DNA from: Escherichia phage vB_Eco_mar004NP2
Sequence record: NC_048205.1
Strand: one strand, 5' to 3'
Length of the DNA: 64,000 bases
Part shown: positions 6,570 through 32,583 of the stretch, in pieces
Numbering within the stretch: the first letter of the stretch is position 1
How the letters are laid out: every line of letters starts with the position of its first letter
Notes under the pieces: model-generated
The model's database searches: none
Told to the model about the DNA's origin: nothing
The model's input: only the letters and a program-made list of their open reading frames with translations
Position numbers and translations under genes: made by a program

Positions 6570-6613
6570 GATTGACACTAAGTCAACTTACTAGCAAAAG
6601 CAAATAATGACAA

Positions 6614-6650: not shown

Positions 6651-6663
6651 AATAAAATTTTAG

Positions 6664-6692
6664 TTGCATAGATGCCCAAACTTTTGTATAAT
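6664..6692 (+). promoter_or_regulatory. sigma70 early promoter (-35 TTGCAT, 17 bp, -10 TATAAT)
   Basis: consensus hexamers immediately after terminator. Confidence 0.55.
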
Positions 6693-6723
6693 ATACTCAT
6701 AGATTGAGGCAATAGGATTAAAT

Positions 6724-9395: not shown

Positions 9396-9407
9396 TCAAG
9401 GATCGCT

Positions 9408-10007: not shown

Positions 10008-10017
10008 GTAATTTTAA

Positions 10018-10047
10018 GCCAGGGTTAAGTACCCTGGCTTTTCTTTT
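10018..10047 (+). terminator. rho-independent terminator
   Basis: hairpin GCCAGGGT-TAAGT-ACCCTGGC plus TTTTCTTTT. Confidence 0.65.
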
Positions 10048-10109
10048 ATCTAAAATTCTTCTTGACAACGACATAATTTTATGCTCCAAGTGTAACATTT
10101 AAAAACCCA

Positions 10110-10138
10110 TTGAAATTTTCCTCCAAAATTAGTATAAT
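10110..10138 (+). promoter_or_regulatory. sigma70 promoter (-35 TTGAAA, 17 bp, -10 TATAAT) for the lysis cassette
   Basis: hexamers and spacing; followed by GAGGAGG RBS. Confidence 0.5.
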
Positions 10139-10163
10139 GGTACTGGTTAGAGGAGGTTACAAA

Positions 10164-10820: not shown

Positions 10821-11230
10821 GTTTTAAATTTGGTAAAAATAGCGAAAAACAATTAGCTACCGTTAAGCCCGAGCTACAAAAAGTAGCTCGTAGGGCTTTA
10901 GAATTATCTCCGTATGATTTCACAATCGTGCAAGGTATTCGTACAGTAGCACAAAGTGCCCAGAACATTGCTAATGGTACTTCATTTCTAAAAGATCCTA
11001 GTAAAAGCAAACATATTACTGGGGATGCTATTGATTTTGCTCCATATATTAATGGCAAAATTGATTGGAATGACTTAGAAGCATTTTGGGCGGTTAAAAA
11101 GGCTTTTGAACAAGCTGGTAAAGAACTAGGCATTAAACTTCGTTTTGGTGCTGATTGGAATGCTTCAGGAGACTATCACGATGAAATAAAACGTGGTACC
11201 TATGATGGCGGTCATGTCGAACTAGTTTAA
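10817..11230 (+). CDS. endolysin, L-alanyl-D-glutamate peptidase type
   Basis: 137 aa with conserved His/Asp metal ligands (HITGDAIDF ... DGGHVE); matches size of T5 endolysin. Confidence 0.7.
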   Translation: MSFKFGKNSEKQLATVKPELQKVARRALELSPYDFTIVQGIRTVAQSAQNIANGTSFLKDPSKSKHITGDAIDFAPYINGKIDWNDLEAFWAVKKAFEQAGKELGIKLRFGADWNASGDYHDEIKRGTYDGGHVELV

Positions 11231-11241
11231 TTAATAACTGA

Positions 11242-11265
11242 GGCGGGAATATTCCCGCCTTTTTA
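11242..11265 (+). terminator. rho-independent terminator
   Basis: hairpin GGCGGGAATATTCCCGCC plus TTTTT. Confidence 0.7.
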
Positions 11266-11307
11266 GGCAAAGGGGGCTTTAATAATTTTTGAAGATAGGA
11301 GAAAGCC

Positions 11308-11724
11308 ATGTTTGCAGAACTATTCACTATGATGCTGCTAGGTATCTGGAAAATAAGTCTAGTAGTATTCGTTTTAATGATAGTCTTTACTATCATTGCA
11401 TTAACTACCCGAAATAGCTTATTAATAAAGGTTATTCACGGACTAGAGTATATAATTATGGGTTCATTCGGCGTTTGTAAATGCAATTGCCATAGAGATA
11501 CGAAATATTGTTGGTTATGGATGGAACTAGAGAATCCCATATCCATAGCTTTGGCTGTTTCATTCGGTATGATTCTTATGGCCCTTACTCTAGCATTAAT
11601 ACCTTTAATGTTAGCTGGGGGAGTTACAGCGTATTTCACCCTTTTCTCCCCGATACTTATGTACTCAATTTACCCAATAACTATGTATCTAGTTAGGAAA
11701 AGATTTATACATGCAGTAGATTAA
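11308..11724 (+). CDS. multi-pass membrane protein, 138 aa
   Basis: several hydrophobic helices; RBS GATAGGAGAAAG. Confidence 0.5.
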   Translation: MFAELFTMMLLGIWKISLVVFVLMIVFTIIALTTRNSLLIKVIHGLEYIIMGSFGVCKCNCHRDTKYCWLWMELENPISIALAVSFGMILMALTLALIPLMLAGGVTAYFTLFSPILMYSIYPITMYLVRKRFIHAVD

Positions 11725-11737
11725 GATAAAAAAGTAG

Positions 11738-11766
11738 TTGACTTTTAGCCCTAGTTATTATATAAT
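11738..11766 (+). promoter_or_regulatory. sigma70 early promoter (-35 TTGACT, 17 bp, -10 TATAAT) with conserved leader
   Basis: hexamers; leader ACATAAATTAGTTAAGAGAGG. Confidence 0.6.
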
Positions 11767-11799
11767 ATATACATAAATTAGTTAAGAGAGGTATATATT

Positions 11800-12231
11800 A
11801 TGTCTGATCGTTTCTACACTCAAATGGCGGAACATTTTCGTATACCACATTACGAGCTAAACATTGCACTCCGTGATCATGACTCTCCTGAGTACAAAAA
11901 GCTCGAAAAGAAAGCGGAAAAATCTATTGATACAAAGGTAGGTGCATCTATGTCTAAGGGCAAAAAGTTAACTCGTCTTGATCTTAATAAAATTTTAACT
12001 GAACTTTTGGGTACTGATATTGAAGGTGCTAAATTACCACTTCTTGTACTAGAGACTATGATTAAAAAGGTCAAAAATAAAGAATATAAGAAGGTAGAAG
12101 TCCCAGAGGGCAGATTAAAGGCTCCTTATCAGGAAGCATTAACCGAGTGTTTGGGTGTAAATCTTGATCTGAGCACCGCAACCGTAAAAACTATGAAAAA
12201 CTTCTTAGAGGCCATTAATAACTATGAGTAA
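11800..12231 (+). CDS. hypothetical protein, 143 aa
   Basis: ATG after AAGAGAGG. Confidence 0.55.
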   Translation: MSDRFYTQMAEHFRIPHYELNIALRDHDSPEYKKLEKKAEKSIDTKVGASMSKGKKLTRLDLNKILTELLGTDIEGAKLPLLVLETMIKKVKNKEYKKVEVPEGRLKAPYQEALTECLGVNLDLSTATVKTMKNFLEAINNYE

Positions 12232-12514
12232 ATTAGTCTATCTATTAAAAGGTTCCACCTGTAACCCGTGTAAACTTTTCGAGCCAGTATTTGATAAAGT
12301 AGTCAGTGACTATAATTTGGAAATCCATAAAGAGACTGATAATACAGAATTAATGCAGAAATTTGGTGTGCGCCAAGTTCCTGTAGTAGTTCTGGCGGAT
12401 CGCTTACCTAATGGTCGAGTAGAAGCTAATCATATTCTGATTGGACGTCAGCTTCGTAAAGAAACTATGCACGAAGCTATTAAAAATTTCCTGGATGATA
12501 ATCCAGAGGACTAA
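12224..12514 (+). CDS. thioredoxin/glutaredoxin-like protein (CxxC)
   Basis: CNPC motif near N-terminus, 96 aa. Confidence 0.45.
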   Translation: MSKLVYLLKGSTCNPCKLFEPVFDKVVSDYNLEIHKETDNTELMQKFGVRQVPVVVLADRLPNGRVEANHILIGRQLRKETMHEAIKNFLDDNPED

Positions 12515-18877: not shown

Positions 18878-19062
18878 TGGAAACTCTTTTTCTTTTAATG
18901 CTCGTAGGTTCCTTGCTAGTTATATTAGCACTTCTACTGATCTGCAATATTCTTAATAATAAGAATCTAGAGCTAAAGTGTGAGAACCAAATCCTTAACC
19001 GTGAACTTAAACAATATAATCTAGCAGCCCATAAACTGTTAGACAAACTGGAGAATAAATAA
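18877..19062 (+). CDS. small TM + coiled-coil protein, 61 aa
   Basis: hydrophobic N-terminus, ATGA overlaps both sides. Confidence 0.4.
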   Translation: METLFLLMLVGSLLVILALLLICNILNNKNLELKCENQILNRELKQYNLAAHKLLDKLENK

Positions 19063-19664
19063 TGTTTACACAACAACCTATTCAAGTAGTACCAGACCAT
19101 GAACTGAACACATGGGATTATAGCCTTAAAGATTTAACTGCTACTGTACAATTCAAATCTATGAAGCTAACATTTGCACACACTGACCTTAGAGCCTGTA
19201 AAGATCTTGAAGGTAAGCTCGAAGATGCTCGTAGGATTTTTGGCACGGCTCGCATCCCGGCTGATAACCTGATTAATGCACTAATCGATGCGGGATACAA
19301 ACTCGTGAAGACTGAGGTGAACCGCCCCAATACTCCAGTGACTATTAGAGACCCGTGGCAGTCAGGGCCAAATACAATGTGGAACAGCCCTAAAATAACG
19401 TCGGATTTGCACAATGTTCCTTGTGGGGGTGTGGTAAGTAGTACGAAGTCATATAAGTTTGGTGAAGATTATGGGCCTTCTGTACAGTTAAAGCATACCC
19501 AAGAAGCTCTTGAATCTGACATGAAAAGCGTAGCGCCTGCGGATACTGAAGGTTTTAGAAGTCCCATCTATGTTACTCACTTTAATAATCTTAGACCTGG
19601 GAGTATAAATGATACTATCCTTGAGGCGTTGGGAGCTGCTCTTAATGAGAGTAAAAAGGATTAA
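19062..19664 (+). CDS. hypothetical protein, 200 aa
   Basis: ORF track. Confidence 0.55.
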   Translation: MFTQQPIQVVPDHELNTWDYSLKDLTATVQFKSMKLTFAHTDLRACKDLEGKLEDARRIFGTARIPADNLINALIDAGYKLVKTEVNRPNTPVTIRDPWQSGPNTMWNSPKITSDLHNVPCGGVVSSTKSYKFGEDYGPSVQLKHTQEALESDMKSVAPADTEGFRSPIYVTHFNNLRPGSINDTILEALGAALNESKKD

Positions 19665-19744
19665 TAATTTCCTAATACATGAGCCTCTACGGAGGCTCTA
19701 AAATAAAAAGAAGGTCATCCAGACCTTAAAAACGGGAGATAATA

Positions 19745-20629
19745 ATGTATAACTTTAAAGATAAACTAAGACAAAATGCTGGTAAAACAAAACCTAAAGA
19801 GAATAATAATGTTCCTAATGCCAAAGTATTACCATTTCCAGAACTGTCTCAAGAAGAAAAAGATAAGTTAGCATTTATGTTTGATGCTCTTCTAGGGCTA
19901 AGTGGACGTTTATATTCCTCACTCAATATTAATGAGAAACGTCTAGTAGAGATGTTCTGTAAACGTTACCAAGTTACTTCAAAGGGCAATTCTTATAAAG
20001 AAGGTGAAAAAGCATTTACAGTCTTAAAGATTAGCGCATATGCACATCGTTTCTTAGTTTATGGATTGCAAATGGAATACTTCACCATCCCATCATTTAG
20101 CTCTTTCCATATCTTTGAAGATGAACGAATGAATATTGATGATCTCTATGGGGATACGTACAAATACTCAGGAAGTCCATTCCACGATGCATTAAGGAGC
20201 TACCCTACTAGTTACTTACCAGTTAGGGCATCTCAAGGTAAAGCTAGCGTTTTTGCTGTTTACTCAGGATCTAAAGCATCGGATCTAGAAACTTATATAT
20301 TTAAAGAGCGTAAATCTGTACTTCCAGATGAAGCATTGTATAGCAATCCATTGCTTCCAGAAAAAGAACCAGAGAAAATTGATGTAACCCCACCAATCCC
20401 ATCTGATTCTCAATATTTAATTTATGAGAAACAAGTTAAGTTATCCCTAGAAATTGGGTTAGTTACACCGCTTGCTGCAGCGTTCATAAATAGATACCTA
20501 GAAATCCCAGATGAGTTCCACCAACGTTATAATACGAATATTCAGATAACGGATGAATTAATTGCGTTAGCAAAAGATACACCTACTGACACTGAGGCGT
20601 ATCAAAAAGCATACCAAGAGTTATTATAA
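19745..20629 (+). CDS. hypothetical protein, 294 aa; last gene before the higher-GC island
   Basis: ORF with RBS AACGGGAGATAATA. Confidence 0.6.
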   Translation: MYNFKDKLRQNAGKTKPKENNNVPNAKVLPFPELSQEEKDKLAFMFDALLGLSGRLYSSLNINEKRLVEMFCKRYQVTSKGNSYKEGEKAFTVLKISAYAHRFLVYGLQMEYFTIPSFSSFHIFEDERMNIDDLYGDTYKYSGSPFHDALRSYPTSYLPVRASQGKASVFAVYSGSKASDLETYIFKERKSVLPDEALYSNPLLPEKEPEKIDVTPPIPSDSQYLIYEKQVKLSLEIGLVTPLAAAFINRYLEIPDEFHQRYNTNIQITDELIALAKDTPTDTEAYQKAYQELL

Positions 20630-20685
20630 TATTCTGCATGTCTCGGTGCACAATACCTGTACCGAGACTCAAATACAAACTCTCG

Positions 20686-20714
20686 TTGACAGATAGCTAA
20701 ATGTATGTTATCAT
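20686..20714 (+). promoter_or_regulatory. strong sigma70-like promoter (-35 TTGACA, 17 bp, -10 TATCAT) firing into a non-coding repeat field
   Basis: perfect -35 and 5/6 -10 with ideal spacing; no ORF with an RBS downstream for 1.6 kb. Confidence 0.45.
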
Positions 20715-21162
20715 AACTCTATGAGTTAATAGAATTAACCATTTAGAGTTGCCACACAGAAGGTGTGGTGGTTCAGTAATTTAAAATTACTAACTTGTAG
20801 CGGAGGATACGGAGCGACAGGACAAGTTAATAAGTAATTTAATATAAATTGCTAGAAACATCACGAGACCTTCTGGCGGGGGCAAAGCTCTATATGAGAA
20901 CCCTGGGGGATCTTATATTTAAAATAAAAGTAAAACTTTTGACCATATAATTTACATTCAAGATGATACACCTGTTGCCGCTCATCTGCTAGGATGGCAC
21001 AACACTTTCTTCTAGACTCCTAAGTTTCTAGGAAAACTCTTACACTCTAGGGCAGTTTCTCTCCAACGTTACATATCCTAGGCCGGTTTAATACAGGGCG
21101 GTTATTGGGAGGGCGGTTATTTCTAGAAGACATTTTTCCAAAACACATTTCCAGAAATTACT

Positions 21163-21764
21163 GTCGGATTCGCACATTGTGTTTCTAGAAATTTATGGTC
21201 GGATTTGCACAATTGCCTAAGTTTTCATGGACACATAATCTCCTGAAAATGGCAGCATTATTTCGGGCCGAAGGCCCATGATTGCCTGAGTTTTTAGAGC
21301 CACAAGAATTTTCACTTGTCAAGCTATTTTGCCACCTTTAGCAAATAAAATTTTACTTTATCTCCACTAATCTCAAATTAACCCAAATCTTCTCAACTCT
21401 TCCCCCAAAAACGCAGCAAATCAGGCGTTGCACGCCACCCATGCTGCTCCTCCAGTTTCTCCACTTATTTTCTCTCGCTCTCTCATCTTCTCCTCAAACC
21501 TATACAATCACACACCCTCCAATCGAAGTCACAAAAATCTTGTCGGATTCGCACATCTTAATCCTAGAAAAACCGTGTCGGATTTGCACATATCCCACAG
21601 GATTCGAACGCAGTTCGAGATTGCTGGAGTTTTTGGGAAAATTCATTGTCGGATTTGCACACTATAAAAATTTTTGGGGTCGGATTTGCACACTACCAAA
21701 AATTGTCGGATTCGCACATACACGCCCGCGCGTAATCCATGGTGGCAAATGTCGGATTTGCACA
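21163..21764 (+). repeat. array of 8 direct repeats GTCGGATT(T/C)GCACA
   Basis: copies at 21163, 21198, 21542, 21577, 21648, 21679, 21705, 21751, all same orientation; candidate injection-stop or protein-binding array. Confidence 0.8.
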
Positions 21765-21796
21765 AAAGCGCAGGGCAATTGCCCTGCGCTAAATAC

Positions 21797-21991
21797 GAAT
21801 GATAATGAGAATCATTCGTATTTAAAAAGCGGAATAAGAATGATAATAGTTCTCATTTAGAAAGTGAAATGAGAATCAATCTCATTTAAGAAAGGGAATG
21901 AGAACTATTCAAAAAATGAAATGATTCTCATTTAAAAAATGGAATGATTATCGGTTAGATAGTGAAATGCGAATGATAATGATTCTCATTT
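21797..21991. promoter_or_regulatory. cluster of about 6 imperfect palindromes AATGAGAAT-N-ATTCTCATT (operator-like; resemble Fur-box halves)
   Basis: copies near 21804, 21845, 21866, 21897, 21918, 21971; further copies at 22328-22348 and 31322-31339. Confidence 0.6.
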
Positions 21992-22096
21992 AAGAATGGA
22001 AGCGAGAAACACTATTATTTAAGTTACCCACAGACTTATTAACAGCACGATTTGATTTGACAGAATCCTAGCCATTTTGAGGCGTTATCAACAGAC

Positions 22097-22105
22097 TTAT
22101 CCACA
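22097..22105 (+). promoter_or_regulatory. DnaA box TTATCCACA
   Basis: exact 9-mer consensus inside left IR arm. Confidence 0.6.
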
Positions 22106-22113
22106 GCTTATCC

Positions 22114-22133
22114 TACTGTATAAATATACAGTA
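22114..22133. promoter_or_regulatory. LexA (SOS) box-like palindrome TACTGTATAAATATACAGTA
   Basis: CTGT-N8-ACAG with AT-rich spacer, 19/20 match to E. coli consensus TACTGTATATATATACAGTA. Confidence 0.55.
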
Positions 22134-22389
22134 TTCCTACGCAGTGAATAATTCTAATATAGCGTTAAAACGTCCTAAATCGCATTCTAACGCGCTTAAT
22201 TTTGATGGGGATACTAAAACAAGGGCAAAATTGGAGGAGGCTTAAAAATTAGTTAGCTTGCTAACGATCACACAAGGCGACACGTAACACCCTAATCATT
22301 AGCAGGCTAACCATCACGGGCGCGGTTAAATGAGAATCACTCTCATTTGAGAATTGGGGGCACTCCCTGGTAGTTGCGCCCCGTTATTA

Positions 22390-22584
22390 TTAGTCTGGTA
22401 GTCGATGCGTGATCTTTTCCTCCTCCCCGTAGGAATCCACCAAATGCTGATAATAACCATCGTGATCATAAATCACTTTATCATACTCGCCACGCTCGAC
22501 CGCTTGTCGGTTTTCCGGCGTATCGGGCACGTAAAAAACATCAACCATTGTACTGATTTTGGTTACAACAATTTTATTGCTCAT
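22390..22584 (-). CDS. cassette gene 7, hypothetical acidic protein (64 aa from internal ATG)
   Basis: ORF track 22390..22614 uses TTG; ATG at 22584 has AGGGG RBS. Confidence 0.4.
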   Translation of the reverse strand: MSNKIVVTKISTMVDVFYVPDTPENRQAVERGEYDKVIYDHDGYYQHLVDSYGEEEKITHRLPD

Positions 22585-22686
22585 AATAACCCCTAGTAAA
22601 TATATTTTTGCCAATAGTGGCGAACGTTATCGCCACCAGCGGAATCATTTGCAGCCTCAACATTACCCGCGAAAATATATATAATC

Positions 22687-23031
22687 TCATTGCGCCACCT
22701 TTCGAAACGCTGTTTCAATACTATCCGCAGTGGATTGAATATACGCGCCTTTCATTATCAGGCGCTCGGTGCATATCTTGCGAAAAATATTAATAAAATC
22801 ATCTTCATTTTCTGCAATTAACGCCTCACCCATGACCTGAACGTCGCAAGATGCAAAGGTCAAAAATTGAAACGCTAGTTCACGGGCAACGACCGCATTG
22901 ATTTTATAATGCGCCTTGCCTTCATAAATATTAATAACGCCCTTATAAGCTGGGGAAAGCTGATTTAAGTAGTTTGCTAGTAATGCCGGACGGCAATTAG
23001 CAACAAAACGATTGCCTTCATAAATTACCAT
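22687..23031 (-). CDS. cassette gene 6, hypothetical protein, 114 aa
   Basis: ATG at 23031 with GGGGAG RBS, 1 nt after upstream stop; the track start 23070 is a TTG that would overlap the upstream gene. Confidence 0.45.
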   Translation of the reverse strand: MVIYEGNRFVANCRPALLANYLNQLSPAYKGVINIYEGKAHYKINAVVARELAFQFLTFASCDVQVMGEALIAENEDDFINIFRKICTERLIMKGAYIQSTADSIETAFRKVAQ

Positions 23032-23032
23032 T

Positions 23033-23245
23033 TTATAGCACTCCCCGAAACGCAGCGTAAAAGGTGGCAAAATGTTTAACTGTTTCAGCTATCACGTTGC
23101 CCCGTTTATCGAATTTTTTCTCGGTAACACGGAAGGCGTTTTTATTTCGCGCTACATATTCAATTTTACAATCTTCCCGCTCGAACGTGTTAACGTCCAC
23201 CAGCTTAAAGCCTTTTGAACGTGCAAGGGAAACGTTACGAATCAT
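23033..23245 (-). CDS. cassette gene 5, hypothetical basic protein, 70 aa
   Basis: ORF directly after small TM ORF. Confidence 0.45.
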   Translation of the reverse strand: MIRNVSLARSKGFKLVDVNTFEREDCKIEYVARNKNAFRVTEKKFDKRGNVIAETVKHFATFYAAFRGVL

Positions 23246-23247
23246 TT

Positions 23248-23397
23248 TTATTCTCCTTTACTAGTCATGCAGCCCAGCAGATAAGAAAATACAGCGATAC
23301 CCGCACCAATAATAACCGCGTGAACGCCGAAAGCTATTGCAAAAAGTGATAAAATAGCGCCCAAGATACCTGCTAGAATAGCTCGAAAAATAACCAT
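23248..23397 (-). CDS. cassette gene 4, small hydrophobic protein, 49 aa (not in ORF track)
   Basis: ATG after AGGAGG RBS; MVIFRAILAGILGAILSLFAIAFGVHAVIIGAGIAVFSYLLGCMTSKGE, two predicted TM helices. Confidence 0.35.
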   Translation of the reverse strand: MVIFRAILAGILGAILSLFAIAFGVHAVIIGAGIAVFSYLLGCMTSKGE

Positions 23398-23446
23398 TTG
23401 TGATAGCCTCCTAGTTATCGGGGGATATTATATCCCCCGTTATTAA

Positions 23447-23677
23447 TTACATTAAAACAATTTTTGCAGCTTGTTTTTTGGTGCAATGTTCCGCCTTCAG
23501 GGTATCCAGCAAAAAGCCAGCCGTTTGCTGATCGATTTTATCGGCGTTATATAGTTCCTGAATGGTATTATAGGTTTTAGCAATACCGAACTCCTGCACC
23601 ATTTCATAGATGACAGCACGATTAGATACCCAGCCTTGCGCGGTAAACAGATGACTAGCAGAAGAATAAGCAACCAT
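23447..23677 (-). CDS. cassette gene 3, hypothetical protein, 76 aa
   Basis: internal ATG at 23677 with GGAGG RBS preferred over track start 23710. Confidence 0.45.
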   Translation of the reverse strand: MVAYSSASHLFTAQGWVSNRAVIYEMVQEFGIAKTYNTIQELYNADKIDQQTAGFLLDTLKAEHCTKKQAAKIVLM

Positions 23678-23783
23678 TTTAAGCCTCCAAATTTTTGGGA
23701 AAATTTTCAACCGTCCTTAAACGGTGTAAAGGCATTATAACAAAAAAGGCCACCAATTATGGCGACCTTTACAAAACTTTACA

Positions 23784-24278
23784 TTAAACTACTTGTAATG
23801 TTTCAATATTGAAACATCGTTTCAATTCGTCATGCAAAACAGCGTATTCATCCCATCGGGTACTATCAGGGATATAAACAAGCTGTTTTAGTCGGTTTGC
23901 GTATATTACCGCTTTATTTCCGATTATTTCAGCGCCACCATATTTAATAATTAATTTCATGACGGAATTAATAGGATCGCCGCCGTTTACATATGTGCCG
24001 GATTTACTTAATTGATAATGATAAAGGCTTGCATATACATTATCATTCTCATACCATTCGCCCGTTTCCTCATCTTCATAGCCATCGCTACCAAAACGAG
24101 AAGCATTATCAACAGCCATTTCATGAGCGAAAGCGTCGAGATCCGTACCAGCAGGAACAAAATATTCCTCAGTATTCCCTTCACCGCAATAGCCAGTATG
24201 ACAATCGACCAAAATGATCATATCATGTTTAGCCTTGCTCACTTCCCCTAGCGAAAACCCATATTTTTCCTCAGCCAT
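23784..24278 (-). CDS. cassette gene 2, hypothetical acidic protein, 164 aa
   Basis: ATG with AGGAGG RBS; no recognisable motif. Confidence 0.55.
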   Translation of the reverse strand: MAEEKYGFSLGEVSKAKHDMIILVDCHTGYCGEGNTEEYFVPAGTDLDAFAHEMAVDNASRFGSDGYEDEETGEWYENDNVYASLYHYQLSKSGTYVNGGDPINSVMKLIIKYGGAEIIGNKAVIYANRLKQLVYIPDSTRWDEYAVLHDELKRCFNIETLQVV

Positions 24279-24343
24279 TTATTAGCCTCCTATTAATTAA
24301 TAAGGGAATAGTAAAGCGGGGAAACAATCCCCGCTAAATATTA

Positions 24344-25336
24344 TTACTCGCTTTCGGTGCTAGTGGTAAAAGTAGAAATATCGATACCTTTCACCATTTC
24401 ATCAATCATTTCAGCGATGTTAAAACTTTGCACCATTTCTAGCATTGCCGCTTCCATAGCTGCGCCTGCTACCGCTTTCGCTTTCTGGTTATTCGGGGCG
24501 TACTGGTCAACCGCTACGCTCAGCAGGTTAGCAATAACTACCCGACCAATCGGCGTATCAATATAACCTTTAATCATAAACGGCGCTTTTTTAGCCGCTA
24601 CTTTCGTGATTTGAGTCAATGCAATTTTGCCAGCTTCCAGTTTTGCAGCATTTACAACAGCGGATTTATTAGCGGCAACGATATTAGCGATCTTGGTCAT
24701 GGTATTATTTCCTTTGTTTTCAGTAGTTTGAGTGTTAACGCTTTGAGTGTTAGAATTTACAGCATGTTTTTCCGTGTTGTCAATAGGCTGATCTTCCTCC
24801 TTCCAGAAAGAAAAGCCCGCGCTTTCAATATCCCCATCATATACATAAGGGTACACTTCCGACGGTAACAAAAAATTACCGTTATCATCAAAGGCCATTA
24901 CAGCCGCGAAACGATACCCGTCACAATCCGACCGATTCCAGCCAACTGATAAATAACGCCAAAATGAATCAAGAAAATTTTCAATATCATAAAGATCATT
25001 GGGGTTGGCTTCATAATTTTCTATTGAAAAAACTTCTAAGCCTGCCCCAGTATCATAGGCTTTTACTGTGCTACCTTTTACGATTATGAAATCAGTATCC
25101 GGCCCTCGACTAGTGAGCAATTGATAATCTTGATTATATAAAACAAGCGTTGCCCCTTGTTTATATAACGGTAGAAAACTATTCATATCATAGGCATCGA
25201 AATCACCAAAAAAGTTTTGGTGAATAGTTTCAGCCTTGTTAATAAAATGTTTAATGCTGGTTGTTCTGCTACCGTCCAGCAGGTTACGCAGCGCACCTTT
25301 TAAGACGGTTGCGTTATCTGGTTTATATAGCCTCAT
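24344..25336 (-). CDS. cassette gene 1, hypothetical two-domain protein, 330 aa (Ala/Lys-rich C-terminal third)
   Basis: ATG with GAGGGAGG RBS; preceded by own promoter. Confidence 0.6.
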   Translation of the reverse strand: MRLYKPDNATVLKGALRNLLDGSRTTSIKHFINKAETIHQNFFGDFDAYDMNSFLPLYKQGATLVLYNQDYQLLTSRGPDTDFIIVKGSTVKAYDTGAGLEVFSIENYEANPNDLYDIENFLDSFWRYLSVGWNRSDCDGYRFAAVMAFDDNGNFLLPSEVYPYVYDGDIESAGFSFWKEEDQPIDNTEKHAVNSNTQSVNTQTTENKGNNTMTKIANIVAANKSAVVNAAKLEAGKIALTQITKVAAKKAPFMIKGYIDTPIGRVVIANLLSVAVDQYAPNNQKAKAVAGAAMEAAMLEMVQSFNIAEMIDEMVKGIDISTFTTSTESE

Positions 25337-25367
25337 TTGTTGGCCTCCCTCGTTAATCGGTGAGTGA

Positions 25368-25397
25368 ATGATAAAGGCAATTTTCTAGCATAGGCAA
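25368..25397 (-). promoter_or_regulatory. sigma70 promoter of antisense cassette (-35 TTGCCT, 18 bp, -10 TATCAT on - strand)
   Basis: hexamers read on reverse complement, AT-rich upstream element, about 30 nt upstream of gene 1 start. Confidence 0.5.
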
Positions 25398-25472
25398 ATA
25401 TTATTTTACCTTTTTATTTTCCTTGCCTAGCGCCTAGTTTTATGCTAACCGCGCAGCGGTACAGTAAAGAGC

Positions 25473-25510
25473 AAAACACGGTGAAGCCACCAGGGCGACG
25501 GGTGAAGGCT
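25473..25510. terminator. hairpin GTGAAGCC...GGCTTCAC, terminator-like on both strands
   Basis: stem with T-rich flank on either strand, between right IR and cassette promoter. Confidence 0.4.
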
Positions 25511-25601
25511 TCACTTTAATATTACCCCACCGCATTTAGCTCGTTAGAAAGCGTTTTAGGCCGCCTAAAATTGATTGCAGTTGTTAACACTACCTTTTTA
25601 C

Positions 25602-25712
25602 CCTGTATATTTATACAGTAGGATAACATGTGGATAAGTCTGTGGATAAGTCCTTATATCGTCGCCTATCGTGTCAAATCATTTTGTGCTGTTAATAAAC
25701 TTGTGGATAACT
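25602..25712. repeat. right arm of inverted repeat; contains LexA-like box CTGTATATTTATACAG (25603-25618) and three DnaA boxes
   Basis: TGTGGATAA at 25629, 25641, 25702 (reverse complement of TTATCCACA). Confidence 0.8.
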
Positions 25713-25994
25713 TAAATGATAGTGGTTCTCACTTAGGACGATAGTTTCTTATAGTTATTATTTCTATCGGTTACGATTTCTTATAATTATTATTTCTCAT
25801 TAATTTATAAGTATATTATATATCATGAAATAGTTAGTTGGCTAATGAGATTTTCCGTGATTAATAGTCTGCTAACAGTTCCGGCTGTTACAATCCACCA
25901 GCATGATTATCATCCTAGCAACTATTAGTCTGCTATCTTTCCGATGCATACTAACAAATAAAAGTCAATTAATTTATTTCATAAAATAAGTAGT

Positions 25995-26027
25995 TATCCA
26001 CTGGAAAATAAAAGTCAAGTGGATAAC
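25995..26027. promoter_or_regulatory. pair of DnaA-box-like sites (TTATCCACT / AGTGGATAA) in inverted orientation
   Basis: 8/9 matches to TTATCCACA; TTATCAACA also at 26061. Confidence 0.45.
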
Positions 26028-26482
26028 TAGGAAAATTTCATTTTTGCTTTTGGGGATAAGTTATCAACAAGGCTAGAATGCGCCTAAAACGCCCTATAAC
26101 GCGATGAAGTTTTTAGCCATGCCATTGCATTGCCTACCCTCGTTTATCGCTACCACGAGCTTTTTAGTTTTTGTCAAGTAGGGCAAGGCAAATATAAATG
26201 AAAAAATTACTTGCCAACCTGCTGGGTTTTATGGTATTCGCGCGCCCGTTTCCTTTAATTTTAGTGCGCCGCGCCCAGGTCGCCGCACGGTGTCCGGTGG
26301 CATTTTGTCTTTACGTTTCTTTACAAAAATAAGGTTGCGCCATTTTTACTATTTGCTATTATTTATCTCGTAGGGCGGCAATGACGAACTACACGGCGGG
26401 AAGTTTACCGCCGCGCTCTTTAAAAATTGGGTACATCTTAAAGTCTATCGGCGGTAAACTTATATTATAAGGAATCGCAGAT

Positions 26483-26686
26483 ATGAAACAAACTTTATTG
26501 ATCACTGGTAAACCAGCTAAAAAATTAGATGGTACTACTAAAAAATTGTTGACAATAGCCCAGCAATCCGTAAAATACCGATTTGCTCAGTACAAGAAAG
26601 GCCGCCAGCAGGGTTTAGAAATGATCTGGCGTAATATTATGATCGACCTGAAAGAAAATCATAAAAAACTGCAAAAAACAGTTTGA
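26483..26686 (+). CDS. pre-early small basic protein, 67 aa
   Basis: ATG after TAAGGAATCGCAG; host-like codon usage. Confidence 0.45.
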   Translation: MKQTLLITGKPAKKLDGTTKKLLTIAQQSVKYRFAQYKKGRQQGLEMIWRNIMIDLKENHKKLQKTV

Positions 26687-26916
26687 CACCCTAGCCGATA
26701 GGCTTTAAGATGTACCCAGTTCGATGAGAGCGATAACTTGATACAATTTGACGGTTAGGTGATTCCCCATAAATCATCCTGCCCCCTAACTGGGATATAG
26801 CAGCCTGCGTGGAGTTCCTTAAATTGATTATAGCGGTGAGCGGATTGTTGCTTATTACCTGCTACTTTCTAGCAGGTAATGCGGAACAATCCCCTAAATA
26901 ACTTGGAGTTTATACT

Positions 26917-27168
26917 ATGCAAAACGTTATTACCGCGCCTAAAATTGGTCAATCCGTTTTTATTCCTTTCGTTACTAAAACGGATGAACTAACCGGAAAA
27001 GCCGAACGTATTAAAGGTGCGGCGCTTATGCCGTTTGATACAATCGACGCGGTATACGCTGAAAATGAACGTAGTAACAACGGCAAAACCGTTTTTAGCG
27101 TTCGCGTTAAATCCGGCGACGTTGTAAAGGTTGTACAGCGTAACGAAAAATGGGAAGCTGTAGCGTAA
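26917..27168 (+). CDS. pre-early hypothetical protein, 83 aa
   Basis: conserved TIR TTGGAGTTTATACT-ATG; followed by hairpin. Confidence 0.5.
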   Translation: MQNVITAPKIGQSVFIPFVTKTDELTGKAERIKGAALMPFDTIDAVYAENERSNNGKTVFSVRVKSGDVVKVVQRNEKWEAVA

Positions 27169-27264
27169 TAGTGTTACTTTTATATCCCCCAGTAGTTCGG
27201 GGGATATAACGATTAACATTATGTTAATCTTATCCCTTAAATTAAACTAATAGGAGTTTTTACC

Positions 27265-27672
27265 ATGACTAACGTTAAAACCGCAAAATTTGCTTGGAAT
27301 GAAGAAAACACTCAAAAAGCTGTTTCTATGTACCAGCAGTTAATTAATGAAAACGGTTTAGATTTCGCAAATAGCGACGGTTTAAAAGAGATTGCAAAAG
27401 CAGTGGGCGCGTCTTCTCCCGTGTCTGTTCGCTCAAAATTGACCAGCGCAAAAGCGTATCAGAAAAGCGATAAGCCTCGCAAAGTTGGCGGCGGTAGCTC
27501 AATCCGCAAAGCTCACTATGTACGCGTTATCGCTAAACATGCTATTGATTCCGGCATTATTAAAGACGCCGACGATCTGGCAAGTCTGGAAAGTGCAAAA
27601 CTTGAAACGCTGGACGCCGTAGCGCAACTGTTAGGCGTTGCCGATGAAGTAAAACAGGCCGCAGGTGAATAA
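27265..27672 (+). CDS. A2: pre-early protein, 135 aa; candidate A2-like DNA-binding protein
   Basis: size and position next to A1-like gene as in T5; assignment by synteny only. Confidence 0.35.
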   Translation: MTNVKTAKFAWNEENTQKAVSMYQQLINENGLDFANSDGLKEIAKAVGASSPVSVRSKLTSAKAYQKSDKPRKVGGGSSIRKAHYVRVIAKHAIDSGIIKDADDLASLESAKLETLDAVAQLLGVADEVKQAAGE

Positions 27673-27728
27673 ATTTAATTAGTGGGGAATATTCCCCACT
27701 ATAATTTCCCTTTGACTGGAGTTTTAAA

Positions 27729-27926
27729 ATGATCTTTTACCCCACTGAATCGTTAATTTTAGGCTTATTTATTATGGCGGCCTCGTTATTATTCGCTTAT
27801 TTTCAAAATGATTTAGACTCATATTATTTTAAACGTAAGTCTAAATTGGCAAAGCGTTTAGGTCTGATTTGTTTTATTGCCGCCATTGCTTGTGGTGTTA
27901 GTTCTAGCCTTATGCCTTTAAATTAA
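27729..27926 (+). CDS. pre-early small membrane protein, 65 aa
   Basis: two hydrophobic helices; TIR CTGGAGTTTTAAA-ATG. Confidence 0.45.
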   Translation: MIFYPTESLILGLFIMAASLLFAYFQNDLDSYYFKRKSKLAKRLGLICFIAAIACGVSSSLMPLN

Positions 27927-28023
27927 TGTTGCAAATTATAACGCCTATTATTCAAGGCGTTATATTTGGCAATATTTGCCAATAACAAACGTTTTTTAAT
28001 CCCTTTAATGGAGTTTTATTAAT

Positions 28024-29688
28024 ATGATTATTTCCGCAGAAAAACAAACCGTTATCCTGAAAATGGCCGCTGACTTTAATTTCTATGGTAAACGTCTGCG
28101 CGCTACTAAACTGGAGGTCTGCGACGATATATCAAAAGCGGTCTACGATACAACAAAACACTCGACCGCTATCTGCGACTGGTTGGAAGCAAATAAACCA
28201 GCTAAACCGAAAGCGGCGAAAGTAGCAAAAGCCATTAAAAACGATGAGCGTCCAGAAGCGGCGGGGATTGTTTCTAGCACGGTTGAGCAATGGGAAGTAA
28301 AGCAGGGTAAACGCTTTATTATTACGTCGATTCAGAATAATACTTTCCCGCATAAAAACTTTTTAGCCTCATTGGAGCAATTTGCTAAATATATCGGCGC
28401 TGATTTGCTGGTTAGCAAGTTTATTTATAACAAAAACGGTTTTCAAAATGGCGAGGGTGCAGAAGGAATAAAATATGATTCCGCATTTGACAAATATATC
28501 TGCAATAAAAACGTGTTTTTAAATAACCGCCGTTTTGCTTTCATGGCTGAAATTAACGTTTTGCCAACCGCAGATTATCCGCTTTCTGGATTCGCTGAAA
28601 CTGCAACGGCGCTTAATCTGGAAGGTCTGGCAATTGGTCACGCTAAAATTACCGCTGAAAGCGTGCCAGCTTTAAAAGGTGAAGTAGTGCGCCGTATGTA
28701 CTCAACCGGAACGGCAACGCTCAAAAACTACATTCAGCAGAAAGCAGGACAAAAGGCCGAGGCGCTGCATAACTTCGGTGCGCTAATTGTCGAGTTCGAC
28801 GAGGACGGGGAATTTTTTGTACGCCAGCTCGAAACGATGGACGAAAGCGGGGTATTTTATGATCTGAATGTGTGCGCTACTCCTGCCGGATGCTATGAGA
28901 CATCGGGGCATGTTTTAGGCTTGCAATACGGCGATATTCACGCAGAAAAACTAGATGATGATTGTGCCGTTGCGTCATGGGCTGGCGAAAATAGCTTGCT
29001 TGATATTCTCAAGCCTAAATATCAGTTTATCCATGACGTGCATGATTTTACATCACGCAACCATCACAACCGCGCATCCGGTGTATTCCTAGCAAAACAA
29101 TACGCCGCCGGACGTGATAAGGTATTAGATGATCTTATCGATACGGGGCGCGTGCTGGAATCAATGGAACGTGATTTCTCGCAAACAATCATTGTTGAAT
29201 CTAATCACGATTTGGCGCTATCCCGTTGGCTTGATGATCGTAATGCTAACATTAAAGACGATCCAGCAAACGCGGAACTATATCACCGCCTAAATGCCGC
29301 GATTTATGGAGCTATTGCAGAAAAAGACGATACTTTCAACGTGCTAGATTATGCGCTGCGCAAGGTTGCAGGTTGTGAGTTTAACGCCATTTTTCTAACT
29401 ACTGACCAATCTTTCAAGATTGCAGGCATTGAATGCGGCGTACACGGTCACAACGGCATTAACGGCAGCCGTGGCAATCCTAAACAATTTAAGAAATTGG
29501 GCAAATTAAACACCGGACACACTCACACCGCCAGCATTTATGGCGGCGTGTATACCGCTGGCGTAGCTGGTAGTCTGGACATGGGTTACAACGTTGGCGC
29601 GTCAAGCTGGACGCAAACGCATTTAATTACCTATGCAAACGGTCAGCGCACTTTGATTGACTTTAAAAACGGTAAATTCTTTGCGTAA
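28024..29688 (+). CDS. A1: A1-like pre-early protein (554 aa, metallophosphoesterase-type motifs)
   Basis: size close to T5 A1; motifs GDIHAEK, HDFTSRNHH, ESNHD, GHTHT; TIR ATGGAGTTTTATTA. Confidence 0.55.
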   Translation: MIISAEKQTVILKMAADFNFYGKRLRATKLEVCDDISKAVYDTTKHSTAICDWLEANKPAKPKAAKVAKAIKNDERPEAAGIVSSTVEQWEVKQGKRFIITSIQNNTFPHKNFLASLEQFAKYIGADLLVSKFIYNKNGFQNGEGAEGIKYDSAFDKYICNKNVFLNNRRFAFMAEINVLPTADYPLSGFAETATALNLEGLAIGHAKITAESVPALKGEVVRRMYSTGTATLKNYIQQKAGQKAEALHNFGALIVEFDEDGEFFVRQLETMDESGVFYDLNVCATPAGCYETSGHVLGLQYGDIHAEKLDDDCAVASWAGENSLLDILKPKYQFIHDVHDFTSRNHHNRASGVFLAKQYAAGRDKVLDDLIDTGRVLESMERDFSQTIIVESNHDLALSRWLDDRNANIKDDPANAELYHRLNAAIYGAIAEKDDTFNVLDYALRKVAGCEFNAIFLTTDQSFKIAGIECGVHGHNGINGSRGNPKQFKKLGKLNTGHTHTASIYGGVYTAGVAGSLDMGYNVGASSWTQTHLITYANGQRTLIDFKNGKFFA

Positions 29689-29744
29689 ATAATTAATCCC
29701 CTAGCGGCTTGAAATATAGCCGCTATTACAGGAGCTAAATTAGA

Positions 29745-30002
29745 ATGAAAGTTACATTACCCAAAACGCTAGACGAAAAAGCATTTATTTCACCGGATGA
29801 AATGGAATCCGATAAAGTTTACAGCTTCGGGCCTATTCTAGCCGCCAAAACTAATACTGATGGGATTATTACGGTCGATTATCGTGATAATGATATTGTA
29901 CCCTTTGACGATGATGGTGCTTTTTATGAGTGGCTAAGCGATAATAATTTACCCGTAAACGGTGAATTAACGCCGTACCAGATGCAGATTATTATCAAAT
30001 AA
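29745..30002 (+). CDS. pre-early acidic protein, 85 aa
   Basis: ORF with CAGGAGCTAAATTAGA RBS. Confidence 0.5.
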   Translation: MKVTLPKTLDEKAFISPDEMESDKVYSFGPILAAKTNTDGIITVDYRDNDIVPFDDDGAFYEWLSDNNLPVNGELTPYQMQIIIK

Positions 30003-30040
30003 ATTAAATCCATTATTAAACTAATTGGAGTTTTATAAAC

Positions 30041-30433
30041 ATGAAAAAGCAAAATATTCCATTTGACCGCGCTCAATCCTCAATTGTTCTGGTTTATTCT
30101 AATGGTGAGCGTTACCACGTCGAGGCGGGGCACGTTATTGATGAATTGCTAGATTTCAATGACGCTTTGCAGGTTACAACATTTGCATATATGCAAGGCA
30201 AACTAACTAGCCATATTAAAGCAAAAGGCGTTTATGTTGACACGGTGAAACAAGAAACGATTATCATCGACGCAGTAAAATCCGGTCTAACCTTTGCAGT
30301 TGTCGCGCCTTGCCCCGCTTGCCTTGATGATCAATTGATTTCTGCAAAAGTATATACTTGTGCGGGGATTCGTTCCCATGTATCAGGTGAGGATGTTAGT
30401 TTTATCGCCGATGCGTTGGCTTATGGTCTTTAA
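30041..30433 (+). CDS. pre-early hypothetical protein, 130 aa
   Basis: TIR TTGGAGTTTTATAAAC-ATG. Confidence 0.5.
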   Translation: MKKQNIPFDRAQSSIVLVYSNGERYHVEAGHVIDELLDFNDALQVTTFAYMQGKLTSHIKAKGVYVDTVKQETIIIDAVKSGLTFAVVAPCPACLDDQLISAKVYTCAGIRSHVSGEDVSFIADALAYGL

Positions 30434-30512
30434 TAGTTAATTTATTATTACCCGCTTATAAATAGCGGGTAATGCTGAATTAATCTAATCCCTTAAATGG
30501 AGAACGTAACAA

Positions 30513-31247
30513 ATGAATAAAGCTATCATGAATCTTTCCCGCAGCTTCCCGCATATTTCCCGCGTCATGATTTGGGATTTAGACGGCACTATCATTAATT
30601 CTTTCCATCGTGTAGCACCCTGCTTTGATAGCGAGGGCAATTTAGATTTAAATAAGTATAAAAATGAAGCGTGTAAACACCATTTAATAATGCAAGATAC
30701 TTTATTGCCATTGGTTGAATATATGCGCCAGTGCATGAATGACGCAAATACTTTAAACATTATTTGCACCGCTCGACTGATGAGTAAGTCGGACTATTAT
30801 TTCTTGCGTAAACAAGGGTTGCGCGGTCGTGGTAATAGTAATATCCGCGTATTTTCCCGCGATACACTACACAAATATTTTAAAGCTGATAAGGTTAGCG
30901 AAATATACCACAGCAAAGACGCAGTATATAAATCTTATTATTTTGAATTATTTAAACAGTTATATCCTAACGCTGATTTTACAATGATTGATGATCATAA
31001 AGGCGTGCTATCAGCGGCAGCGTCATACGGATTTAAAACGCTGGACGCACAAGCCGTTAATGATATTCTATCAATCGGCGTGGCATTGATAGGTGAAACC
31101 TTTATTGATGAATCTCTCGACGATGATAATGATTATCAATTCCTAGCTGACCGTTTAAAATTATGCTGGGAAGGTATGACCGAGGAAGAACGCGCAGAAT
31201 ATAGTTGCAGTCCTCAACAATATATTGAGAAATTAAAAGTTGCCTAA
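30513..31247 (+). CDS. dmp: 5'-deoxyribonucleotidase (HAD-like), Dmp-like
   Basis: 244 aa as in T5 Dmp; HAD motif I in VMIWDLDGTIIN; last gene of the island. Confidence 0.55.
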   Translation: MNKAIMNLSRSFPHISRVMIWDLDGTIINSFHRVAPCFDSEGNLDLNKYKNEACKHHLIMQDTLLPLVEYMRQCMNDANTLNIICTARLMSKSDYYFLRKQGLRGRGNSNIRVFSRDTLHKYFKADKVSEIYHSKDAVYKSYYFELFKQLYPNADFTMIDDHKGVLSAAASYGFKTLDAQAVNDILSIGVALIGETFIDESLDDDNDYQFLADRLKLCWEGMTEEERAEYSCSPQQYIEKLKVA

Positions 31248-31399
31248 CAATTAAAGTTGAAATAGTCACGGTGTGTAATGATACCATGCCGTGACTATTA
31301 GCCTGCTAAGTACCGGGCGGTAATGAGACTCATTCTCATCTGGGGGGCCACTGGACACACCCACGCGTACGTAATCCAAAGAAATTGGCAAAAGTCAAA

Positions 31400-31645
31400 T
31401 TAGCGCATAGAAGGGTCATCAAACCTGTATTCTGGTCTGAACTCACGGAATCTCTTCCGCGACGCCCGAGATCCATCCGACCACTCCCGCTCAAACTCCG
31501 CACGTTTCTCGTCAAACTTCCGCTCCCTTTCCGCAATCTCCCGCGTCACTCCCGCAATATATTTACGATGCTTATTGATTGCCGCAGTCGTCCCGAAAAC
31601 TCCCGTGAGTATCCCGATAATAAAAGCAATTACAATACTAAACAT
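31400..31645 (-). CDS. small TM protein with highly charged tail, 81 aa
   Basis: ORF track; N-terminal TM helix. Confidence 0.4.
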   Translation of the reverse strand: MFSIVIAFIIGILTGVFGTTAAINKHRKYIAGVTREIAERERKFDEKRAEFEREWSDGSRASRKRFREFRPEYRFDDPSMR

Positions 31646-31832
31646 CTAATTCCCTCTCAATTTGCAGAATACGGGTACTATCACAGCGTTGAAGCTCTAC
31701 TAATTTTTCTAGTGCAAATTGTTGCTGCTTTACCTGGGCCTCTAGAGTTTTTAGGCGAACATACGCGGTATAAGAAACAATGAAAATTGCCCAGATTAAT
31801 ATTACTATTAATGTAGCTGCCACTTCCATCAT
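31638..31832 (-). CDS. small TM + coiled-coil protein, 64 aa
   Basis: ORF track; ATGATGG overlap. Confidence 0.4.
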   Translation of the reverse strand: MMEVAATLIVILIWAIFIVSYTAYVRLKTLEAQVKQQQFALEKLVELQRCDSTRILQIERELDV

Positions 31833-31936
31833 TTACGTTTCTCCAGCAATAAAGTTTCAATTCTAGCTAAGTGATTATCTAAAATACATTGCCCAATAAT
31901 CACAATCCCTAATAGTGCAATAATTACCCATTCCAT
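31829..31936 (-). CDS. micro membrane protein, 35 aa (not in ORF track)
   Basis: MEWVIIALLGIVIIGQCILDNHLARIETLLLEKRK; coupled TAATGG/ATGATGG junctions. Confidence 0.3.
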   Translation of the reverse strand: MEWVIIALLGIVIIGQCILDNHLARIETLLLEKRK

Positions 31937-32064
31937 TAAATCCACCCCGCCATAGCTGCTAACCAAAAACCTACGAAAATAAAGAATAGGAGAGTTCCGA
32001 ACCCAAAACTATTTATCCAACTCTCATACACCTCTCCGCGTCTATTATTTCTTTTGTTTGACAT
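31936..32064 (-). CDS. micro membrane protein, 42 aa (not in ORF track)
   Basis: GGGAG RBS; MSNKRNNRRGEVYESWINSFGFGTLLFFIFVGFWLAAMAGWI. Confidence 0.3.
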   Translation of the reverse strand: MSNKRNNRRGEVYESWINSFGFGTLLFFIFVGFWLAAMAGWI

Positions 32065-32231
32065 ATCTTTCGTGCTCCCATAAATGTGATATTTTAAAAT
32101 ATGTGCATAACCAACCGTGCTTGTGGACTCCTAGAAGGACTTCTACTTTTCTTACATAGTGGTTTCTGCCAATATACCATCCAAGAAATAAAAAATTTAG
32201 TTTACTTGGATGTCTTTTTGTTTTATACTAA

Positions 32232-32498
32232 TTACAGGTAATTAGATTGCTCTAGTTTAAATTTACAATCACCATATTTAAGGTCAAACTGACTGAGATC
32301 CCACCACCCAAATTTAGTACGGAGCTGTACTACTGGAAAGCGATCTCCCTTAATACGAACTTTTTGAACCTTGAGACCGTAATATTCTTCTCCCGCACCA
32401 CCAAAAGATTTTACAAATCCCGTACAAAATGGTTTGGGAGCAGGTACACAACCAGATAATATAACTGTGGCAACTAGTGCAATTACAAACTTTTTCAT
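32232..32498 (-). CDS. llp: Llp-like lipoprotein (receptor-blocking superinfection-exclusion type)
   Basis: signal peptide with lipobox LSGC; small size; adjacent and antisense to the receptor-binding protein gene as in T5. Confidence 0.5.
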   Translation of the reverse strand: MKKFVIALVATVILSGCVPAPKPFCTGFVKSFGGAGEEYYGLKVQKVRIKGDRFPVVQLRTKFGWWDLSQFDLKYGDCKFKLEQSNYL

Positions 32499-32583
32499 AT
32501 TTATCTCTCCATTTCTAATTTATGAATTTATTATAGCAAAATAGAGGGATGAAAGCAAATACATTTTTATAATAGGAGATTAT

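Follow-up and report, generated by a model that had tools for sequence, protein, structure and literature searches.

The T5-type terminal repeat (TR) and the repeats of its injection-stop (iss) region are already known. In bacteriophage T5 (NC_005859) the TR is annotated at positions 1-10219 and 111532-121750, and its iss Repeat Region 3 (~9330-10409), with the DRC, DRE and pal elements of Wang and Davison, was described by Davison (bioRxiv 10.1101/866236), for whom the function of the palindromes lying there was beyond guessing. In phage BF23 the repeat measures 9,743 bp, with ends set by PhageTerm (PMC10644984). Here we analysed a window of 64,000 nucleotides from Escherichia phage vB_Eco_mar004NP2 (NC_048205.1), in which two related modules ~9 kb apart, hereafter modules A and B, and a recurring GC-rich box had been proposed to mark the two ends of such a repeat, collapsed into one copy. 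Their interpretation bears on how T5-type concatemers are cut into two ~10-kb repeats and on how transfer stops after the first 8%. We consider it likely that the window holds one collapsed T5-type TR (21297-31357), that module B and the GC box next to it form the end-forming signal of the left junction, and that module A is internal to the repeat.

The terminal repeat and its boundaries

A homology search with positions 19000-32000 of the window matched 492 phage records, including hundreds of T5-like phages. The closest was Salmonella phage PMBT29, 99.1% identical over the full length, and the next-ranking matches were many Tequintavirus (T5-like) genomes at ~90%. The window runs in reverse of the T5 map. 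It carries the pre-early genes dmp (30513-31247), A1 (28024-29688) and A2 (27265-27672), all on the plus strand and all within the TR, and the iss repeat region in the T5 order, as is typical of a Demerecviridae TR. T5 110790-112911, which leads out of the unique right end and into the repeat, aligned without interruption to window 32101-29993, and T5 9317-12497, which leads out of the repeat and into the early region, did the same to window 22225-19069. Because these alignments are continuous over both junctions, the assembly must hold a single collapsed TR copy. The original prediction was thus correct in assigning this DNA to a T5-type phage, as the PMBT29 and T5-like matches attest, and in suspecting a collapsed repeat.

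We delimited this copy, the first-step-transfer DNA of ~10,061 bp (21297-31357), by alignment to T5, EASG3, BF23 and records that contain both repeats. Window position 31357 corresponds to T5 position 1 and window position 21297 to T5 position 10219: the start of the T5 left repeat, TGTCCACTG, aligns to window 31357, which puts the left cut at 31357/31358 (a slash marks a cut here and below), and the end of the T5 repeat, ...GTGGCTC/TAAAAACTC (in its longer context ...TTCTGTGGCTC/TAAAAACTC), aligns to window 21297, which puts the right cut at 21296/21297. EASG3 has an exact repeat of 10,227 bp with the same two ends, the BF23 ends align to both window boundaries, and the NB-phage repeats' right end maps to 21296/21297. 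Both ends are also common to eight of nine two-repeat IMG/VR records, though the repeats of these range from 8,085 to 10,822 bp. The boundaries therefore coincide with the virion ends of relatives, namely T5, BF23 and KpGranit (the latter two determined by PhageTerm), EASG3 and the NB phages, and both could be fixed in a collapsed assembly by comparison alone. The predicted virion ends are 5'-TGTCCAGTGG... on the left and ...CTTGTGGCTC-3' on the right.

At the right boundary, the context (21280-21325, minus strand) reads ...TTGACAAGTGAAAATTCTTGTGGCTC/TAAAAACTCAGGC in the T5 sense, with the cut equivalent at 21297/21296. Most related loci carry a 39-nt motif at this boundary with 0-2 mismatches, and two-repeat records terminate exactly there. 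In KpGranit, a Klebsiella phage of another genus for which PhageTerm defined the TR, the repeat stops in the same TTGACA-N20-/TAAAAAAC context, and the right end of My1 lies in a similar TTGACA-N20-/ context. These comparisons indicate that the right boundary is set by a conserved TTGACA-N20-/TAAAAAC element, unrelated to the signal found at the left junction.

A promoter-like sequence at 21268-21335 (minus strand, T5 sense) also contains the right repeat end; it is made of an A/T-rich stretch, TTGACA, ~18-20 nt and TCTAAAAAC, a context kept in KpGranit and My1. As the cut lies directly before TAAAAAC, the promoter-like element is intact in the left repeat copy only. The DRD repeats of T5, 9-10 direct copies of TGTCGGATT(T/C)GCACA, are found at 21162-21764 and at 19399-19413; they stand on both sides of the right TR boundary, two outside (21162 and 21197) and six inside (21541-21764), a layout that recalls pac sites having small-terminase binding boxes on either side of the cut. 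A likeness of the left and right cut contexts (an inverted CCACnG and a G-run ~40 nt inside each end) was a by-eye reading and was discarded as too weak, and AACCGCC / TAACCGCC, considered as an end motif common to both ends, gave no convincing pattern.

The left junction and its internal paralogue

Module B occupies the last 73 bp of the TR (31285-31357, plus strand) and consists of TTAGCCTGCTAA, GGCGGT (31316-31321), the palindrome AATGAGACTCATTCTCATC (31322-31340) and a spacer of 17-18 nt to the left terminus. Junction alignments place the terminal GC box, CACCCACGCGTACGTAATCCA (31358-31378, plus strand; consensus C.CCCC..CAyGTryAAC), just outside this terminus; it is the end of the unique region and adjoins the right-hand repeat in virion DNA. 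Since alignment puts the left terminus of T5 between module B and this box, both flank a physical DNA end, as pac- or cos-like elements do.

The position of the cut relative to these elements is conserved. When 67 distinct junction variants were aligned, they showed ggGGGCGGTAATGAGACTCATTCTCAT tT.G, then a variable GC-rich stretch of 10-13 nt, then C.CcCC..CAcGTacaActT; this last, a conserved box outside the repeat with the cut at its 5' edge, is the terminal GC box noticed originally. Records that stop at the left terminus end 17-18 nt past ...TCTCAT, and in 11 records from four genera the end is 41-42 nt away from GGnGGT. Among these are T5, BF23 and KpGranit, whose palindromes are degenerate. 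Such conservation at a fixed distance from the cut is again a feature of pac- and cos-like sites. Two alleles exist among close relatives for the ~110 bp on the inner side of the left end, one of the window type (with the palindrome) and one of the T5 type (degenerate), and the ~25 bp outside the end likewise occur as two alleles; all combinations were seen, and the cut column was constant throughout.

The motif is also widespread. We found GGCGGTAATGAGACTnnTTCTCAT (scan pattern GGCGGTAATGAGACTNNTTCTCAT) as an exact match in 93 IMG/VR viral stretches; in 70 of these a homologue of dmp with 29-97% identity lies no more than about 1.3 kb away. My1 (Mccorquodalevirinae) and Vibrio phage Dax (Ermolyevavirinae, with an A1 protein ~31% identical) have GGCGGTAATGAGACT(T/C)(A/G)TTCTCAT at the same place, and the motif is exact in phages whose neighbouring proteins are only ~30% identical. 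Across 185,579 prokaryote genomes it gave a single match, in a 3-kb contig of a metagenome-assembled genome (MAG). This lone locus (L144; JBMYRF010000105.1, 2804-2827) was binned in a Rubripirellula MAG and is probably a mis-binned phage fragment.

Two further observations concern the left junction. In many environmental T5-like contigs (L052, L053, L063, L066, L075, L085, L091 and others) a second palindrome, AATGCGAATSATTCGCATT or AATGATAATCATTCKCRTT, stands directly upstream of GGCGGTAATGAGACT, so that the left end carries tandem operator-like sites. In addition, ATTAGCGC (31398-31405), ~45 nt outside the junction, is conserved in all aligned Tequintavirus junctions; it contains a GCGC, which we take to be that of the T5 nick sites, on the strand nicked in T5, and may be a minor nick site.

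Modules A and B are indeed related and in the same orientation, with palindrome centres 8,993 bp apart and coordinates slightly shifted from those first given: the core of module A, CGGGCGCGGTTAAATGAGAATCACTCTCATTTGAGAATTGGGGGCACTCC, lies at 22317-22366 (originally 22305-22365) and that of module B, CGGGCGGTAATGAGACTCATTCTCATCTGGGGGGCCACTGG, at 31314-31354 (originally 31306-31350). Their local alignment scored 33, compared with 13.1 +/- 2.3 for random window segments (maximum 29, n=2,959), and the best non-self match to module B in the 64 kb is module A. The similarity continues leftward to an upstream ATTAGCnnGCTAA, and the parts common to both cassettes are a small TTAGCnnGCTAA palindrome, a GGGCG(C)GG stretch, a 19-bp palindrome of Fur-box type and a G-run. 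Beyond the cut the similarity was not significant (p = 0.69), and a duplication of the whole concatemer junction was rejected on this ground. Concerted evolution or co-variation of the two modules was likewise rejected: each is conserved as a family of its own, and the fixed differences between them across phages indicate that no gene conversion takes place. Modules A and B are anciently diverged paralogous non-coding cassettes.

The elements of module A (22290-22375, plus strand) are TTAGCAGGCTAA, a GGGCGCGG stretch, the AATGAGAATCACTCTCATT palindrome at 22329-22347, one additional TGAGAAT half-site and a G-run. The module is conserved in most sampled T5-like phages, in 19 sequence variants, most of which have a perfect 10-1-10 palindrome, AAATGAGAAT[C/G]ATTCTCATTT. 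It does not lie at a DNA end as a pac- or cos-like site would. In the window the right boundary is ~1.07 kb beyond it, and no record among the phages sampled ends at module A. T5 and BF23 are without the ~107-bp segment that holds it, and module A is accordingly not among the described T5 iss elements.

These data allowed us to evaluate the proposal that A and B are the two ends of a ~9.0-kb repeat (about 22365-31357), both read by terminase. The significant relatedness of the modules, their common orientation and ~9-kb spacing and the position of module B at an end had made this model attractive. However, in all seven records that contain both repeats and module A, the right end is found 950-1,150 bp past the module, and the window itself matches the conserved right-end context at 21280-21325. 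Moreover, T5 and BF23 share their ends with the other phages yet have no module A, and module A has CGCGGT instead of GGnGGT and no outside box. We therefore regard the ~9.0-kb model as highly improbable. The repeat measures ~10.06 kb, and the right ends of T5, BF23, EASG3 and the NB phages all map to 21296/21297. In short, the similarity that was first observed is real and its interpretation holds at the 31.36-kb boundary, where module B and the GC box do flank an end, but fails for the other boundary, which is at 21.30 kb and leaves module A inside the repeat.

Could module A be a relic of a former end? In this scenario it would be the fossil left-end signal of an ancestor with a short, iss-only repeat of ~1.07 kb (21297 to ~22364); that repeat would later have spread over the pre-early genes as the role of module A passed to module B, a new copy of the signal. 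Module A is oriented like module B, shares with it only the repeat-internal half of the junction, and stands precisely where the coding block gives way to the iss repeats, all of which would fit. Nevertheless, no sampled phage has an end at module A, no trace of an outside box is seen there, and the good conservation of the module, whose palindrome has improved to 10-1-10, suggests that it functions today and is not decaying. We find a fossil end very unlikely.

The surroundings of module A point to a different context. To one side of it is the stop codon of the last rightward pre-early ORF (22390-22614, minus strand), and to the other the hairpin GTTAGC-AA-GCTAAC with a U-run (UAAUUUUU) after it (22244-22265, minus strand). 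This hairpin was apparent from RNA folding and was not called by a simple consensus terminator scan. The minus strand of 22240-22389 folds at -55.6 kcal/mol (z = -4.7). From this model the hairpin is likely the terminator of the rightward (T5-sense) pre-early operon, in which case module A would be part of the 3' untranslated region of that operon. Could the modules then act as RNA, forming the structured 3' ends of the two divergent pre-early operons (dmp being followed by B and the T5.017 homologue by A) and serving as stabilising hairpins or terminators? Both modules are just 3' of the last gene of an operon and both regions fold better than shuffled sequences, that of A through the hairpin and U-run and that of B at -36.9 kcal/mol (z = -2.7). 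On the other hand, the consensus scan found no terminator, further copies of the palindrome occur in the iss region, which has no annotated gene, and a fixed distance to the DNA end with a box beyond that end are features of DNA. In addition, the modules vary too little for a covariation test, and an Rfam scan of 21000-32500 returned sub-threshold chance matches only. We thus judge a role at the RNA level unlikely.

The second GC box, CACGCCCGCGCGTAATCCA (21721-21739, plus strand), corresponds to T5 9786-9805; it has a DRD iteron on either side and is ~30 bp away from the nick-site palindrome described below. Like module A it is removed from the DNA end, being ~430 bp (0.43 kb) inside the repeat. 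The recurrence of the box that had been reported is real, at 21721-21739 and 31358-31378, but it is weaker than that of the modules: the pair aligned with a score of 23, compared with 10.1 +/- 2.0 for random segments, one of which reached 24. The core of the internal copy, ACAyGCCCrCrCGTAA, is conserved, but its TAATCCA part is not in most relatives. With a matrix built on the outside box, the internal copy of T5 scored 12.9 and that of the window less than 11 (sub-threshold), compared with 14.2 for a chance match at 61986. Co-variation of the terminal and internal boxes was rejected, all variant combinations being found among relatives. The resemblance is weak, and the internal box may at most be a weak copy of the outside box.

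Palindromes of Fur-box type within the repeat

The core common to modules A and B is a 19-bp palindrome, with the family consensus AATGAGAATcATTCTCATT. Searching the window for this family (AATGAGAATCATTCTCATT) at three mismatches or fewer yielded six sites, compared with 0.04-0.13 expected from shuffled sequences. All six are inside the TR, and four belong to the iss region. These four form a cluster at 21798-21990 (starts at 21804, 21839, 21868 and 21972), in which two palindromes have overlapping sites offset by 6 bp. The cluster is homologous to T5 9519-9709, and the iss homologue of the window spans 21297-22225; both the four palindromes and the internal GC box thus have their counterparts in T5 iss Repeat Region 3. 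Palindrome clusters of a similar kind are present in T5, BF23, KpGranit and My1.

Other elements of the iss region were recognized as well. Paired DnaA-type boxes occur at 22024-22045 (TTACCCACA and TTATTAACA) and 22085-22106 (TTATCAACA and TTATCCACA), with an inverted partner, ~131 bp long, at 25603-25734; together they are the IRD'-spacer-IRC' and IRC-spacer-IRD elements of Davison. The palindrome GCGCAGGGCAATTGCCCTGCGC (21768-21789) is homologous to the major single-strand nick site of T5 (annotated at T5 9748/9749), and the equivalent nick is expected on the window plus strand just before GCGC, at about 21767/21768. A plasmid-type origin, which the iterons and DnaA boxes had suggested, was dismissed, as the region had no match in 72,556 plasmids and is the known T5 iss.

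The palindrome family resembles the operators of the iron regulator Fur. The Fur-box consensus of Xanthomonas campestris, AATGAgAATcATTctCATT (PMC1790865), is a 19-bp inverted repeat of 9-1-9 form like the present one, and the family consensus is identical to it letter for letter; listed Acinetobacter and Listeria Fur boxes match the consensus AATGAGAATcATTCTCATT too. The Fur box of E. coli is GATAATGATAATCATTATC, and its 9-1-9 form reads AATGATAATnATTATCATT. Four palindrome sites match the E. coli 19-mer at 15 of 19 positions, module B and iss sites among them, and module A matches it at 13 of 19. At four mismatches or fewer, all seven positions found in the 64 kb are inside the TR, compared with 0.51 +/- 0.75 expected for the whole window. 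In sequence, therefore, these 19-bp inverted repeats qualify as Fur boxes. Their placement differs from that of known Fur boxes, since they lie past the 3' ends of operons, at the DNA terminus and within the iss region, which is non-coding, instead of at iron-regulated promoters.

An additional Fur-type box, a perfect 7-1-7 palindrome (TGATAATGATTATCA; 31119-31143) with 16 of 19 matches to the E. coli 19-mer, lies in dmp, ~220 bp from the left end, where it encodes DDDNDYQF. It is also present in KpGranit (18/19) and in locus L045. For this box, coding constraint and binding site are indistinguishable.

It is possible, although we put it forward tentatively, that the palindromes in A, B and iss are sites for host Fur, a reading that is compatible with a packaging signal. 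Iron-loaded Fur would then coat both ends of the first-step-transfer DNA, where it could serve as an architectural factor at the packaging site (compare IHF at lambda cos), stop injection or protect the end, or be titrated, the sites acting as a Fur sink. Besides the identity to the Xanthomonas consensus, the Acinetobacter and Listeria matches, the four 15/19 sites and the confinement of all seven positions to the TR, the overlapping sites offset by 6 bp and the G/T toggling at TGA[G/T]AAT are typical of Fur operators. Moreover, the palindromes are kept in phages whose proteins are only ~30% identical, which fits a conserved host factor. Against this, the sites are not associated with promoters of iron-regulated genes, many relatives have TGCGAAT half-sites, which are poorer Fur matches, module A reaches only 13/19, T5 functions without a left-end copy, and Fur binding is a prediction only. 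Furthermore, the invariant, asymmetric GACTCATTC and the GGCGGT flank are unexplained by a symmetric Fur dimer and point to another reader.

In the literature searched, nothing relevant linked T5 or first-step transfer to Fur: the T5 papers assign no function to the palindromes and mention neither the left-junction motif nor Fur, the latter being absent from the text of Davison's comparative paper (bioRxiv 10.1101/866236), and the motif string itself was not found. The left-junction signal, its constant distance of 41-42 bp and the palindromes' identity to Fur boxes thus appear to be undescribed in the searched literature, Wang et al. 2005, Heusterspreute et al. 1987 and Davison 2015 excepted. 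A Pfam scan of ten TR ORFs, including A2, recognised no DNA-binding domain. The palindrome reader may be host Fur or a conserved phage or virion protein.

A model for the left-junction signal and its relation to known systems

We propose that the left-junction signal is bipartite, with module B as its inner half and the terminal GC box as its outer half. In the window orientation it reads GGGCGGTAATGAGACTCATTCTCAT - N17-18 - cut - C.CCCC..CAyGTryAAC, and the left virion end forms 41-42 bp from GGCGGT. The packaging machinery, presumably the terminase, would read this signal to make the end-forming cut. As the left end is injected first, it should be packaged last, and the left cut would thus be the terminating one. 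Module A is a further member of the TR-restricted, operator-like palindrome family; it probably belongs to the 3' untranslated or terminator region of the rightward pre-early operon and lies where the injection-stop repeats have their proximal edge.

Several points weigh against this model. To our knowledge, terminase binding has been demonstrated in no T5-like phage, and the fixed distance fits a sequence-specific end-binding protein equally well. The ends of the phage itself are placed by homology to relatives, and one two-repeat record (chee24 type, L018/L021) was deposited with different ends. Module A and left ends of the module B type are present independently of each other among phages. 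Finally, T5, BF23 and KpGranit cut at the same place and keep only GG(C/G)GGT(A/T)A...GACT, so an intact palindrome cannot be essential for the cut.

A more speculative extension, which we consider rather unlikely, is that one protein reads the Fur-box-type palindrome both 17-18 bp from the leading left end and in the injection-stop cluster. Recognition would then, in one event, set the place of the end-forming cut or retain the DNA end in the virion, and would also arrest transfer after the first ~9-10 kb; the left-junction motif would be the long-sought cis signal by which T5-type ends form, and the true stop signal would be the iss palindromes. The bipartite motif, at 41-42 bp from the left end, offers a concrete target for terminase-binding and mutagenesis work, and repeat-restricted palindromes that are indistinguishable from Fur boxes in sequence are directly testable with purified Fur. 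The junction motif could also mark the start coordinate for T5-like genomes.

Compared with T5, the window has the same gene content and order (dmp, A1, A2 and so on), homologous repeat boundaries on both sides, and an iss Repeat Region 3 with the same paired DnaA boxes, DRD iterons, nick palindrome and palindromic repeats. T5 differs in having no module A and only a degenerate module B at its left end (GGCGGTTAGCAGACTAAGTATTTTC). The loss of the palindrome from the model phage may explain why the motif escaped notice.

More distant parallels can be drawn with lambda and T7/T3. At lambda cos, cosQ, cosN and cosB act with host IHF and produce 12-nt ends, and in T7 and T3 pac signals lie at the concatemer junction and the repeats measure 160-230 bp. 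As in these systems, conserved elements flank a cut of fixed position, recognition is beside the cut and not at it, and a host architectural protein may take part. The T5-type junction differs from them in that it has no sequence similarity to either, its repeat is ~10 kb long, and its two boundaries use unrelated sequences.

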